Below are positions 53,743 through 61,384 of a stretch of DNA of 64,000 nt, piece by piece. The translations under genes were made by a program, and so were the position numbers. Each line of letters starts with the position of its first letter. Positions within the stretch are counted from its first letter, which is position 1. The notes beneath the pieces are model-generated. The model did not search any database. It was given only the letters and a program-made list of their open reading frames with translations, and was not told the origin of the DNA. The stretch is from a virus (Duplodnaviria > Heunggongvirae > Uroviricota > Caudoviricetes): positions 246,418-310,417 of IMG/VR virus record IMGVR_UViG_3300009784_000001. One strand, 5' to 3'.

Positions 53743-53864
53743 TCCCCTGTAGCTCAGTTGGTTAGAGTACTTAAAATGAAGTTTTCTGGGTAGGAAATGT
53801 TCAGCAATATCAATCAAAATCGCTGTTAACGAAGGGGTCGGCAGTTCGAGTCTGTCCAGGGGTT
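53743..53864 (+). ncRNA. tRNA-Asn(GTT)-like RNA with a 48-nt insert (53773-53820) in the anticodon stem
   Basis: Removing the insert restores CTTCG-CTGTTAA-CGAAG; D and T arms canonical; T1:T72 mismatch, T73. Confidence 0.85.
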
Positions 53865-55168: not shown

Positions 55169-55289
55169 TGAGAATTAGCTCAGTTGGTAGAGCAAAGGTA
55201 TTATAAAAAGTTTCTTGAATAAGAAATGTTCAGCAATATTTAAAAATGGGAACTTTATGTCAGCAGTTCGAGCCTGCTATTCTCATCCA
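55169..55289 (+). ncRNA. tRNA-like RNA (Pro TGG-like) with ~45 extra nt in the anticodon loop
   Basis: Acceptor TGAGAAT/ATTCTCA-T-CCA, canonical D/T arms, stem AAGGT/ACTTT enclosing 52 nt ending TGGGA. Confidence 0.8.
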
Positions 55290-56438: not shown

Positions 56439-56705
56439 ATGAAAACATTAAGAGAAAGACAAATTGGTGAAAGATTTAAATATAGAAAAAATATAGTTGA
56501 AGTCAAATCTGTTATTTATAACAAATGTTTTTATTGTCAATTTAGAAATCAATCTAAATGGATTGTAATTCTAAATGGTTGTTATCAAGAAAAAAATATG
56601 TTTGATTCTTGTTCAAAGAAACATAATTGTTCAAGATATACCAGAAAGGATAAAAAAGATGTTTATTTCAAACTAGTCAAAAGACTTTATTTAGAAAGAA
56701 AATGA
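56439..56705 (+). CDS. Cys-rich hypothetical protein
   Basis: ORF track; C..C.F..C..RKD.K.VYFK. Confidence 0.6.
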   Translation: MKTLRERQIGERFKYRKNIVEVKSVIYNKCFYCQFRNQSKWIVILNGCYQEKNMFDSCSKKHNCSRYTRKDKKDVYFKLVKRLYLERK

Positions 56706-57265
56706 TAGGTTCAAATAACACTGATAAGTTTAAGATATTCCAAATAAGATGGGCTGAAAAGTTGGGTTATAACGATAATCCATATTTAATAAGGTGGACA
56801 TTTATATTTTTTGGATATTCAATGAGAATACATCATTGGATTAAATCAGATGATAATAGATATTTTCATGATCATTCAAGTGATTTGTTAAGCATTGTAT
56901 TAAAAGGAAAATATACAAATGTTAAACCTCTTATGTGGAAGAAAAATTTACCTCCAACTCATTTATTTGAAGTTGAATTACCACCAGAATCTTCAATAAA
57001 GAGAAAGTTTATTTCAAATACTGTAGAGTATCCAGTTGAAGGTATTTTTAATTCTTGGAAAAATTTCTTCAATATGAAGAAATCAATATGGTTTTCAAAA
57101 GCAACTGAACAACATTACTTGAGTATTCCAAAAAAAGGTGCATGGACATTGTTATTTGAAGGAAAAGCATATCATAAGTGGGGATTTTATGTAAATCAAC
57201 ATAAATGGAGACCATTAAGATATTTCTCAAAGTTTGGTATAATACAAACAGAAAATTATCAATAA
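56702..57265 (+). CDS. Cupin-like protein
   Basis: RIHH..SDD.R.FHDH..SIVLKG.Y..H..WTL..KWGF. Confidence 0.65.
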   Translation: MIGSNNTDKFKIFQIRWAEKLGYNDNPYLIRWTFIFFGYSMRIHHWIKSDDNRYFHDHSSDLLSIVLKGKYTNVKPLMWKKNLPPTHLFEVELPPESSIKRKFISNTVEYPVEGIFNSWKNFFNMKKSIWFSKATEQHYLSIPKKGAWTLLFEGKAYHKWGFYVNQHKWRPLRYFSKFGIIQTENYQ

Positions 57266-57281
57266 TTTTTAACATAAAAAA

Positions 57282-57313
57282 TTTGGTCATTAAAAATAAA
57301 ATTTGTATCTTTG
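57282..57313 (+). promoter_or_regulatory. Bacteroidota-type promoter
   Basis: TTTG-N20-TATCTTTG. Confidence 0.8.
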
Positions 57314-57607
57314 CATTATAAATTATGTTTTATTGATAGATTCAGGTACTGAATATTGGCACTGTAAAATATAGTTTAGAGTAATAGGCAGTAAGTCATA
57401 TATCTATGAGTAGAGGGTAACGTTTGAAATTAGTATATACTCCTTTGAAAAAGTGCAATGACCTATTATTTTTTATTAAATATTGATAATTTTTTAAATA
57501 ATAGTATATTTATATTAAAAAACTTATAAATGGGTATTGAACCATAAATAAAAAGTAAAAACAAAAAAAGCAATGGGAACAGATGCTTAAAAAAAGAAAA
57601 AAAAGAA

Positions 57608-57739
57608 ATGAGAGAATTTAGTAAACATATTAATAATTTTGTTGAGGTTAGTTATAAACCCAATAGTAATTGTAATTCAAATGAAAAACCATTTGAAGAT
57701 GATAATAATTTGCTAAAAGGATTTTGTGTATATATGTAA
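57608..57739 (+). CDS. Attenuator leader peptide 1: MREFSKHINNFVEVSYKPNSNCNSNEKPFEDDNNLLKGFCVYM (43 aa)
   Basis: Translated by hand; A-rich start context; 3' end complementary to the terminator 5' arm. Confidence 0.75.
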   Translation: MREFSKHINNFVEVSYKPNSNCNSNEKPFEDDNNLLKGFCVYM

Positions 57740-57760
57740 CATTTACTCAAATATACGTTC

Positions 57761-57810
57761 CACAAACCCTGATAGCAAAATTAAAAAAGTTATCAGGGTT
57801 TTGTGTTTTT
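57761..57810 (+). terminator. Attenuator terminator 7 nt before tRNA-Glu
   Basis: CACAAACCCTGATAGC / GTTATCAGGGTTTTGTG plus TTTTT. Confidence 0.85.
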
Positions 57811-57817
57811 AATATAT

Positions 57818-57888
57818 GGCGCATTAGTTTAGTGGTAGAACAGGCGGTTTTCAGCCGAAGGAGAGGGTTTCGATTACCCTATGCGCTA
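57818..57888 (+). tRNA. tRNA-Glu(TTC)
   Basis: Loop TTTTCAG; two mismatches at the top of the anticodon stem. Confidence 0.8.
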
Positions 57889-57895
57889 CAAATAT

Positions 57896-57968
57896 GTACC
57901 TGTGGCAGAGTGGTTTATGCACTTGACTGTTAATCAAGACTACGAAGGTTCGATCCCTTCTGGGTACG
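57896..57968 (+). tRNA. tRNA-Asn(GTT)
   Basis: CTTGA-CTGTTAA-TCAAG, G73. Confidence 0.92.
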
Positions 57969-57976
57969 CAAAAATA

Positions 57977-58048
57977 GAGAGTATAGCATAATCTGGTAAG
58001 TGTGCCTTCCAAGTGGGAAGGAGATGTGGTTCAAATCCAATACTTTCT
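57977..58048 (+). ncRNA. Atypical tRNA-like RNA with a non-canonical anticodon loop
   Basis: GAGAGTA/TACTTTC acceptor, D arm, CCTTCC-AAGTG-GGAAGG, GGTTCAAATCC; no U33. Confidence 0.65.
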
Positions 58049-58056
58049 GCAAAAAT

Positions 58057-58128
58057 AGTCTATTGGTCCAGCGGTTAGGATGCCAGATTGTCAATCTGGT
58101 GGCGAGGGTTCAACTCCCTTATAGACTG
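58057..58128 (+). tRNA. tRNA-Asp(GTC)
   Basis: CCAGA-TTGTCAA-TCTGG, G73. Confidence 0.92.
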
Positions 58129-58134
58129 CTATTT

Positions 58135-58207
58135 CTGGGTGTAATTCAGTAGGAAGAATGCTTGGTTTGGGACCAAGATGTCGGGAGTTCGAGCCTCTCT
58201 ACTCAGA
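58135..58207 (+). tRNA. tRNA-Pro(TGG)
   Basis: CTTGG-TTTGGGA-CCAAG, C1-G72, A73. Confidence 0.92.
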
Positions 58208-58214
58208 CAAAATT

Positions 58215-58290
58215 CGGATAGTAGGGAAGCTCGGTCGTTCCCGCCTGCCCTGGACGCAGGAGATCATAGGTTCAAATCCTGTTTATCCGA
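58215..58290 (+). tRNA. tRNA-Pro(TGG), variant loop with C33 and A37
   Basis: CCTGC-CCTGGAC-GCAGG, C1-G72, A73. Confidence 0.85.
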
Positions 58291-58427
58291 CTATAATTAA
58301 AAAAGTTAAAGGGACTTTGAAAAGAATTATAAGTGAAAATAATATGAGTAATAAATTAAAAATAAAACGAAAATGTAGCTGACCTCACAGTTAATATGGG
58401 CTGTGAGGTTGGGAATAAGGATATTAC

Positions 58428-58500
58428 TCCCTCATAGCTCAATGGTTTAGAGCTTCTGTCTTTTAAACAGAAGAACCAGGTCCGATTCCTGGTGGGGGAA
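58428..58500 (+). tRNA. tRNA-Lys(TTT)
   Basis: TCTGT-CTTTTAA-ACAGA. Confidence 0.9.
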
Positions 58501-58518
58501 CTATAAAAATAAAAAAAA

Positions 58519-59968: not shown

Positions 59969-60079
59969 ATGAAACAAATTAGTAGTACATATTGTCTTGG
60001 AAGTTCATCAGCGATTAGTTTTGCTGGTACAACATCCTTTTGTACTTATCATTTTTATGATAATTTTGTTTCAAGTTAA
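59969..60079 (+). CDS. Attenuator leader peptide 2: MKQISSTYCLGSSSAISFAGTTSFCTYHFYDNFVSS (36 aa)
   Basis: Translated by hand; 25 of 36 codons are S/T/Y/C/F/A/L; 3' end complementary to the terminator 5' arm. Confidence 0.82.
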   Translation: MKQISSTYCLGSSSAISFAGTTSFCTYHFYDNFVSS

Positions 60080-60371: not shown

Positions 60372-60442
60372 CATAAAAATATTTTTCTTAATAACTATAC
60401 TTTTTTAGTTCGATGCGATATTTATATATAAATGTAAATATT

Positions 60443-61384
60443 ATGATAAAGGAACGAGAAGAATTAATTATTAAAATAATAAAAGAGAGTAATAGTATTT
60501 CAGAGGTTTGTAAAAAGTTAAATATATCTGTTACTAATGGTAATTATATAACAATAAAAAAAATAATAAAAAACAATAATTTAGATATATCTCATTTTAA
60601 AAGAGTTTCACAAAATTCTAATAAAAAGCGATATACGTTACAAGAAATTATGGTTGAAAATTCATCATACACCAATGTAAATAAATTAAAGAAAAGATTA
60701 ATTAAAGAAGGGATTAAGGAAAATAAATGTGAAATATGTGGAATAAGTAAATGGAATGGAGAACAAATTTCTTTACAATTGCATCATAAAAATGGTATCA
60801 CAAGTGATAATAGAATAGAAAATTTACAAGTACTTTGTCCCAATTGTCATTCTCAAACACATAACTATGGTGGGAAAAATATAGATAATAAAATAAGAGA
60901 AGATAGATTTTGCAGAATATGTGAGAAAAAGTTAAACGATACACAAAAAAAGTATTGTTCAATCAATTGCTATAATAAAAGTATTGATGATAATATTCCA
61001 ACTAAAAACAAAATCTTATCTTATATAAAAAATTATACAACACTTGTAGAATTATGTAAAAAAGAAAAAATTGATAGAGGGACATTTAGAAATTGGTGTA
61101 ATAAAAGACAATGTATAGATGATGTAAATTTTTTGTTGAAAAAAAATTTTGAAATAAAAATTTTAAATATTGAAGTTAAGAATGATTTATATGAAAAAAG
61201 ATGTGAATTAATAAATAAATTTAAAAAATTTGGGTCATTCTTACAAGTAGGTAAATATTATGGAGTATCCGATAATATGATAAGAAAAAGATGTAAAAAA
61301 ATTGGTTTACCTGTTCATACAAAAGAAATGATAAAATTAATAAATTCGGAAGAATGTCAGAGTGCTTTATTGTACAACTCTTGA
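60443..61384 (+). CDS. Free-standing HNH homing endonuclease within the tRNA array
   Basis: CEICG..LQLHHKNG..DNRIENLQVLCPNCHSQT; the stop codon is the anticodon of the next tRNA. Confidence 0.88.
   Translation: MIKEREELIIKIIKESNSISEVCKKLNISVTNGNYITIKKIIKNNNLDISHFKRVSQNSNKKRYTLQEIMVENSSYTNVNKLKKRLIKEGIKENKCEICGISKWNGEQISLQLHHKNGITSDNRIENLQVLCPNCHSQTHNYGGKNIDNKIREDRFCRICEKKLNDTQKKYCSINCYNKSIDDNIPTKNKILSYIKNYTTLVELCKKEKIDRGTFRNWCNKRQCIDDVNFLLKKNFEIKILNIEVKNDLYEKRCELINKFKKFGSFLQVGKYYGVSDNMIRKRCKKIGLPVHTKEMIKLINSEECQSALLYNS

Follow-up and report, generated by a model that had tools for sequence, protein, structure and literature searches.

It has long been asked what phages gain from their tRNA genes, codon compensation and the replacement of tRNAs destroyed by host defence being the competing answers. 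In the locus described here, a predicted terminator ends 7 nt before the first of seven tRNA genes. The locus lies in a 64,000-nucleotide stretch of jumbo-phage DNA (the window), which belongs to a single virus record of 359,943 bases (∼360 kb, 26% GC), and its Glu/Asn/Asp/Pro unit is located in the dispersed tRNA region of that genome. DNA of the phage was present in termite-gut DNA runs only. One Logan contig matched the assembly without differences and may be its source, and when sequence variants of the phage were sought in four DNA runs none were found: apart from this contig, the runs yielded just two short pieces, both identical. Since TTTG-N19-21-TAnnTTTG, the promoter pattern of Bacteroidota, has 87 occurrences genome-wide compared with 17 in shuffles, a host among the Bacteroidota is, on sequence evidence, most likely. 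A BLAST search against cultured phages returned tRNA bodies only, with no cultured homologue of the unit, of the Lys element or of a Tyr/Lys leader.

We propose that the unit is a ribosome-mediated transcription attenuator with tRNA genes as its output, followed by a Lys-specific folding switch. We consider the attenuation highly probable and are more reserved about the Lys switch as a sensor; regulation is inferred, in the absence of expression, termination or ribosome data. The features on which it is built are collected in Table 1.

Table 1. Coordinates of features in and around the unit, with the basis of each assignment
Feature	Position	Strand	Basis or remark
Putative Bacteroidota-type promoter, TTTG-N20-TAnnTTTG	57284..57315	+	sequence and genome-wide enrichment of the pattern
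TATATTTATA motif, inferred to act as a promoter element	57505..57514	+	homology with ortholog L352 starts here
Mini-ORF 1, 5 codons, upstream of leader	57530..57547	+	identical in ortholog L352; role unassigned
Mini-ORF 2, 5 codons	57573..57590	+	identical in L352; stop 17 nt before leader ATG
Leader ORF, 43 codons	57608..57739	+	A-rich start context; ortholog P0002 73% identical
Region 1, protector strand	57617..57625	+	predicted to pair with 57709–57717 in untranslated nascent RNA
Putative sensor codons 17–31 (K, P, N, E, D)	57656..57700	+	composition, mask model, class profile
Region 2, antiterminator strand	57709..57734	+	imperfect copy of terminator 3' arm
Region 3	57753..57779	+	terminator 5' arm (57761–57776) and flanks pairing with region 2
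Intrinsic terminator 3:4 with T-tract	57761..57810	+	fold, in silico only; 5' arm 57761–57776, 12-nt loop, 3' arm 57789–57805, T5 57806–57810
tRNA-Glu(UUC)	57818..57889	+	atypical anticodon stem with two G.A pairs
tRNA-Asn(GUU)	57896..57969	+	tRNA prediction
Degenerate tRNA, called Thr-AGT	57976..58050	+	ARAGORN; Rfam 32.9 bits; no U33, mismatched T arm
tRNA-Asp(GUC)	58057..58129	+	tRNA prediction
tRNA-Pro(UGG)	58135..58208	+	tRNA prediction
Second tRNA-Pro(UGG)	58215..58291	+	altered anticodon loop: C33, A37
Putative Lys-sensing mini-ORF, 12 codons, 4 AAA	58344..58382	+	conserved in-frame AAA CGA AAA (K-R-K)
Hairpin, 14 bp, ∼−21 kcal/mol, no U-tract	58379..58412	+	5' arm overlaps mini-ORF stop
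Anti-tRNA strand	58397..58408	+	12-bp complement of tRNA-Lys 58430–58441 (acceptor 5' strand and start of D arm)
tRNA-Lys(UUU)	58428..58501	+	tRNA prediction
Third attenuator, Gln/Gly/Trp-rich leader	G000:C1:312751-313265 (L046)		before tRNA-Gln, -Gly, -Trp

Leader ORF, terminator and alternative helices

Ahead of the array, the first-pass annotation had proposed a 43-codon leader ORF, a terminator immediately before tRNA-Glu, and an alternative pairing between the end of the ORF and the terminator 5' arm, and all three were recovered. The terminator hairpin is predicted at −21 kcal/mol, its region has a z of −3.65 with none of 200 shuffles as good, and the leader stop lies 21 nt before it; a standard terminator scan misses this structure because its 12-nt loop exceeds 8 nt. 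The alternative 2:3 helix, formed by 57709–57729 with the terminator 5' arm, reaches −16.4 kcal/mol, with p 0.0012 against shuffles and p 0.02 against synonymous recodings, and equally good pairing is reached by 9 further windows among 7057 in the genome. A third helix, 1:2, joins 57617–57625 to 57709–57717 with a pairing probability of 0.77–0.93 until region 3 is complete, and this fold is also predicted in the ortholog; in the model, such a protector would favour termination in the absence of translation. The four-segment layout of an attenuator is complete, with 1:2 as protector, 2:3 as antiterminator and 3:4 as terminator, and includes mutually exclusive helices. Since the terminator is the more stable of the two folds at equilibrium (−21 versus −16 for the antiterminator), the switch depends on kinetics.

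In the proposed mechanism, a ribosome would translate the 43-codon leader. Were its Glu, Asn, Asp, Pro and Lys codons read fast, the ribosome would cover region 2, 3:4 would form and transcription would terminate before tRNA-Glu. Were one of these tRNAs scarce (cleaved, uncharged or out-titrated), the ribosome would stall within codons ∼17–31, also blocking 1:2, so that region 2 could capture region 3, no terminator would form and the tRNA array would be transcribed. With no ribosome, 1:2 would form first and termination would be favoured. Translation of the leader and of the Lys mini-ORF, coupling to RNA polymerase, and the direction and size of the regulation are inferred, and transcription-translation coupling in the host is unproven.

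The protein database yielded one homologue of the leader (P0002, 73% identity), and the corresponding DNA (L352) aligns from TATATTTATA onward, including both mini-ORFs. Codons 7–15 have diverged, and within codons 16–39 there is a single synonymous change and a single S-to-N replacement. In addition, L352 lacks one T at the 2:3 internal loop. This deletion puts the last four codons into another frame and keeps the position of the stop, and the 2:3 pairing is retained (−18.6 versus −18.4 against the window's region 3). Because pairing and stop position survive the frameshift, RNA rather than the peptide tail appears to be constrained at the end of the leader. The ortholog contig ends at the leader stop and does not extend to where a terminator would lie, so that the 2:3 and 3:4 covariation of this particular unit is unscored.

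Motifs resembling TATATTTATA are also found upstream of the Gln/Gly/Trp leader and of the leader at L001. The motif is not enriched genome-wide, and for this reason the evidence for it as a promoter element is weak. Both of the tandem 5-codon mini-ORFs that follow it (57530–57590) have A-rich starts, and mini-ORF 1 is a 70% repeat of mini-ORF 2; they may serve to load ribosomes onto the leader or to recycle them there, following the idea of reinitiation (PMC4833913), or add E/P/D sensing. Further upstream, two hairpins at 57322–57480, the last with a U-tract, follow the Bacteroidota-type promoter and represent a possible small RNA. Judging from the fold of this segment, the promoter probably drives a separate two-hairpin RNA ending in the U-tract near 57475; the segment had no Rfam match and is missing from the ortholog context. 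A 187-aa protein encoded at 56702–57265 has no Pfam match and is 55–70% identical in ∼65 loci, very often within tRNA arrays; its His-rich motif suggests a metal-binding, tRNA-related enzyme. No viral relatives were found for two neighbouring proteins, nor were relatives of a 73-aa downstream ORF found in the protein database. A module of a stem with ACAGCA/TCAGCA is repeated at 53743–53864, 53912, 54357, 55169–55289, 59790 and 59853, free-standing and also inserted in two tRNA-like RNAs.

Codon content of this leader and of its class

Residues E, N, D, P and K make up 20 of the 43 in the leader peptide (20/42 in the proteome comparison), a level attained by 134 of 1951 chunks of the phage proteome. 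Over the whole peptide the match is marginal (p 0.05 against this proteome), and the first-pass annotation had rightly cautioned that the whole-peptide match is weak by itself. The enrichment is sharper in codons 17–34, where 14 of 18 are of this type: 18-codon windows with at least 14 such residues occurred in 6 of 1951 proteome chunks and 1 of 660 short ORFs, and the leader ranked first among 88 viral leaders for E/N/D/P/K. When a ribosome footprint of +9 to +15 nt was masked codon by codon, masking to E30/D31 left 2:3 intact and D32 did so partially, whereas N33/N34 and beyond largely abolished it. The count of 14 in the 18-codon sensor proposed earlier thus stands, but its last two or three codons lie too close to the antiterminator to work, and since masking at N33/N34 removes 2:3, the working sensor is slightly shorter, approximately codons 17–31. 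Codons 25–28 are all cognate and sit at the class-wide peak position; the only Asp codons, D31/D32, are at the margin of the permissive window. Because the sensor codons are also predicted to form conserved hairpins, their conservation in a single ortholog may partly reflect RNA structure.

The array had been described as Glu, Asn, Asp, Pro, Pro and Lys. These tRNAs are present, but the degenerate tRNA at 57976 had been left out, and tRNA-Lys has its own upstream element. The leader contains no Thr codon, so that the degenerate tRNA is unmatched by any leader codon. Altered anticodon arms were seen in three tRNAs, at 57976–58050 (no U33), 58215–58291 (C33/A37) and 57818–57889 (G.A pairs), possibly nuclease-evading or decoy variants. 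Positions 58295–58319, just behind the second tRNA-Pro, repeat the loop and 3' arm of the terminator at 80% and are partly complementary to the T arm of this tRNA, as a relic or by chance.

Two further leaders of the genome share the layout: leader 2 (59969–60079), with 25 of 35 codons cognate (p 1.5e-5), and a third one beyond the window, before tRNA-Gln, -Gly and -Trp (12/29, p 1.3e-5). For the end of each of the three leaders the best pairing partner is its own terminator arm, and compositional matches across units do not exceed background. No convincing leader-terminator was found upstream of the Val/Met, Leu/Arg, Met or Ile/His tRNAs of this genome. The tRNA array that follows leader 2 is interrupted between tRNA-Tyr and tRNA-Ser by an HNH endonuclease gene (60413–61384).

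For class-wide statistics, loci were gathered via a neighbouring protein and via a terminator-then-tRNA pattern, and leaders were chosen by start context, blind to composition, giving 88 dereplicated viral units. The cognate fraction was 0.298, compared with 0.156 for permuted leaders (z 14.8, 0/10000 permutations), and 57 of the 88 match their own tRNA cluster better than do at least 90% of the other leaders. The match is confined to the ATG frame, the other two frames giving z values of 0.0 and −0.3. Cognate density is 0.61–0.75 at 7–10 codons upstream of region 2 and drops to background, 0.07–0.25, at its start, the 2:3 helix beats shuffles (p ≤ 0.05) in 39 of 57 matched units, and the stop precedes the hairpin by 13–38 nt (median 25). 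For Leu, Ser and Arg, leader codons fall preferentially into the codon box read by the isoacceptor that is encoded downstream (52/83, 38.8 expected, z 3.2). Covariation, which the first-pass annotation had put forward as a check, was observed for the 2:3 helix in other units of the class: in two ortholog families region 2 follows region 3 by compensatory changes. In one family, when L115 is compared with L122/L129/L182, an A/G change in region 2 is accompanied by a T/C change in region 3, and five Cys/Val/Leu leaders have five different matched region 2/region 3 pairs. The layout, statistics, conservation and covariation are direct observations, and the folds are predictions observed as such.

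These data bear on two other accounts of the locus. One is chance: a processing hairpin or an ordinary constitutive terminator that happens to be preceded by a spurious ORF of AT-rich DNA. The residues N, K and E are indeed common, as the 134 proteome chunks illustrate, and in bacterial chromosomes 83 of 103 terminator-plus-tRNA sites have no leader. However, a constitutive terminator 7 nt upstream would silence the array, with no space for a promoter, and chance would have to produce the 2:3 pairing (p 0.001), the protector helix, the conservation in the ortholog, the two parallel units of this phage and a class z of 14.8; we regard it as the least credible of the explanations weighed here. 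Hardly more credible is an untranslated leader, whose RNA would sense tRNAs directly by T-box-like codon–anticodon pairing or be under the control of a phage protein. In favour of such an account, the leader RNA has a well-formed predicted structure, which the ortholog keeps; against this, Rfam gave no T-box or riboswitch match, the enrichment is in the ATG frame only with a peak offset equal to the ribosome footprint, and the ORFs are intact, with A-rich starts and a fixed stop-to-hairpin distance. The attenuator reading of the first-pass annotation thus draws support from the geometry of this unit together with the class statistics, the regulation itself being inferred.

Twenty of the 103 bacterial sites do have a leader, and ∼7 match their own tRNA cluster, which indicates that the leader-terminator design is not strictly viral. 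Bacterial units were noted at L251, L260, L280, L290, L310 and L333. Those of Chitinophagaceae, among them L260, L280 and L290 from cultured Chitinophaga isolates, are accessory tRNA-Ile(UAU) loci whose leaders have ATA codons; others lie in regions with nucleotidyltransferase-like genes or in a tRNA array of a leptospiral genome.

A putative folding switch before tRNA-Lys

The last tRNA of the array is preceded by a second element, without a terminator, so that tRNA-Lys may be additionally, perhaps mainly, under a separate Lys switch. The anti-tRNA strand, contained in the 3' arm of the hairpin, pairs with tRNA-Lys at −20.2 kcal/mol (shuffle p 0.0006). In predicted folds the cloverleaf forms when the hairpin is closed, and when the 5' arm is masked the anti-strand invades the acceptor stem; in the mask model, acceptor pairing of tRNA-Lys is 0.98 for stalls up to R9 and 0.0 at the stop. 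We envisage that the K-R-K mini-ORF is translated on read-through RNA or on RNA from its own, unidentified promoter. A ribosome reaching the stop would melt the hairpin, and the freed strand would invade the 5' end of tRNA-Lys, leaving no cloverleaf and presumably no maturation; a ribosome stalled at the Lys codons would leave the hairpin closed, and tRNA-Lys could fold.

The element recurs in ∼12 distinct phage loci, including L004/L005/L072/L081, L041, L054, L084, L086, L096, L100 and L116. These have an in-frame Lys-Arg(CGA), usually K-R-K, and a stop 39–61 nt before tRNA-Lys that sits on or adjoins the hairpin 5' arm; the ORF shrinks to little beyond K-R-K with its frame kept. Anti-strands track the differing tRNA 5' ends, with −14.8 on the diagonal compared with −10.1 kcal/mol when permuted (0/100000), two non-switch entries having been left in. 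A new search that required no ATG, stop or complementarity gave five true tRNA-Lys matches (two distinct), all with an in-frame K-R-K ORF of 5–6 codons, a hairpin and an anti-strand, and with the mini-ORF stop 43–48 nt upstream; individually, the two out-of-sample anti-strands reached only p 0.02 and 0.07. Strong anti-strands (≤ −14) are found at 8 of 27 eligible Lys tRNAs and at 14 of 744 other tRNAs, and no convincing anti-tRNA switch with a cognate mini-ORF was found for non-Lys tRNAs. In five homologues the anti-tRNA fold wins at equilibrium at all ribosome positions and even without a ribosome, which implies that a Lys switch must be kinetic, acting co-transcriptionally.

This last property, together with the unexplained invariance of the CGA codon, could also be accommodated if the element were not a Lys sensor but an invariable aid to folding or processing, or an Arg-CGA pause, and served to time the maturation of tRNA-Lys or to protect its precursor against nucleases. 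Against such a role stand the ORF that shrinks to about K-R-K and yet stays in frame, with its stop 39–61 nt from the tRNA and on or beside the hairpin 5' arm, and the excess of strong anti-strands at Lys tRNAs, and we find it doubtful. That the Lys element acts as a sensor is the interpretation towards which we lean, with some reserve, on in silico evidence without RNA data. A −1 frameshift at CGA AAA is known from the B. subtilis cdd site. Here it would place the stop only 4 nt earlier, and it does not obviously account for the conserved CGA.

At L074:991, L096:2500 and L100:8333, a spacer strand is complementary both to the 3' end of an upstream tRNA and to the 5' end of tRNA-Thr, possibly coupling the folding of one tRNA to that of another.

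Known systems and the likely trigger

Multivalent attenuators of enterobacteria include trpL, hisL, thrL, ilvL of ilvGMEDA and pheM of pheST. The phage unit resembles them in its short leader ORF with regulatory codons, its 1:2 protector, a 2:3 helix weaker than 3:4, a stop shortly before the terminator and the sensing of several amino acids by one leader. The general mechanism of leader-peptide attenuation has been set out elsewhere (PMC4833913). All structural features of a classical attenuator are met, but the target genes are tRNAs and not biosynthetic enzymes or synthetases. The unit also differs in being phage-encoded, in sensing five residues and in that several unrelated leaders divide the tRNA set into blocks.

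In T-box riboswitches, tRNA status sets the choice between terminator and antiterminator, and it would do so here as well. The phage unit has no T-box fold or motif, however, and sensing appears to need translation in one frame. Rfam searches for a T-box Stem I specifier loop or antiterminator bulge gave no match at the gathering score or at E ≤ 1 except tRNAs, besides which there was one sub-threshold reverse-strand match lying on tRNAs; identity with a T-box or another riboswitch was therefore rejected. Leader stalling in ermCL, cat and tnaC results in translational attenuation. The position of a ribosome on the Lys mini-ORF may likewise select an RNA fold without a terminator, but here the alternative fold would sequester the beginning of tRNA-Lys and not a ribosome-binding site, so that the element falls outside the ermC type and the output would be tRNA folding and maturation.

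The trigger is inferred. Classical attenuators sense uncharged tRNA, and a stalled ribosome cannot distinguish cleaved from uncharged tRNA; the same mechanism could thus respond to amino-acid starvation or a general slowing of translation, and the unit would then serve late protein synthesis as a sensor of nutrients or demand. This alternative, which differs from our preferred explanation in the trigger only, remains possible, if unlikely: extra tRNA is no cure for a missing amino acid, and isoacceptor-level matching with a dedicated Lys(UUU) switch fits tRNA supply. Moreover, Lys(UUU) and Asn(GUU) are targets of PrrC and AriB (PMC12409363). AriB and PrrC cleave tRNA-Lys(UUU), AriB also cleaves Asn(GUU), and phage tRNAs rescue, the tRNA-Lys, -Thr and -Asn of T5 countering PARIS AriB (PMC12409363). 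As in T5, the phage tRNA-Lys(UUU) and tRNA-Asn(GUU) would replace cleaved host tRNAs, and expression level matters for rescue; the relevant passages describe no sensor that induces phage tRNAs (PMC12409363). In our view the likeliest trigger is that functional tRNA runs short, as it would under attack by anticodon nucleases, with plain starvation or demand not excluded.

In our literature search, outside which most subscription papers fell, we came across neither tRNA genes controlled by a leader peptide nor an anti-tRNA switch. Whether jumbo phages audit the host tRNA pool codon by codon through leader peptides, with attenuation freeing blocks of tRNAs and a ribosome-controlled anti-strand gating the folding and maturation of tRNA-Lys(UUU), is in our judgement evenly balanced. 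If the codons of a leader sense the very tRNAs whose genes it controls, the phage treats these tRNAs as an on-demand supply, with a trigger that is directly testable. It would extend attenuation from enzymes to tRNA genes and offer portable multi-codon tRNA biosensors, and leader codons could separate functional from degenerate phage tRNAs, the tRNA at 57976 being unsensed. In the Lys element, if confirmed, the folding of a tRNA would be decided by a ribosome. Such control of tRNA folding, coupled to translation, would then constitute a new class of RNA switch and an inducible form of counter-defence, centred on tRNA-Lys(UUU), a prime target of anticodon nucleases.
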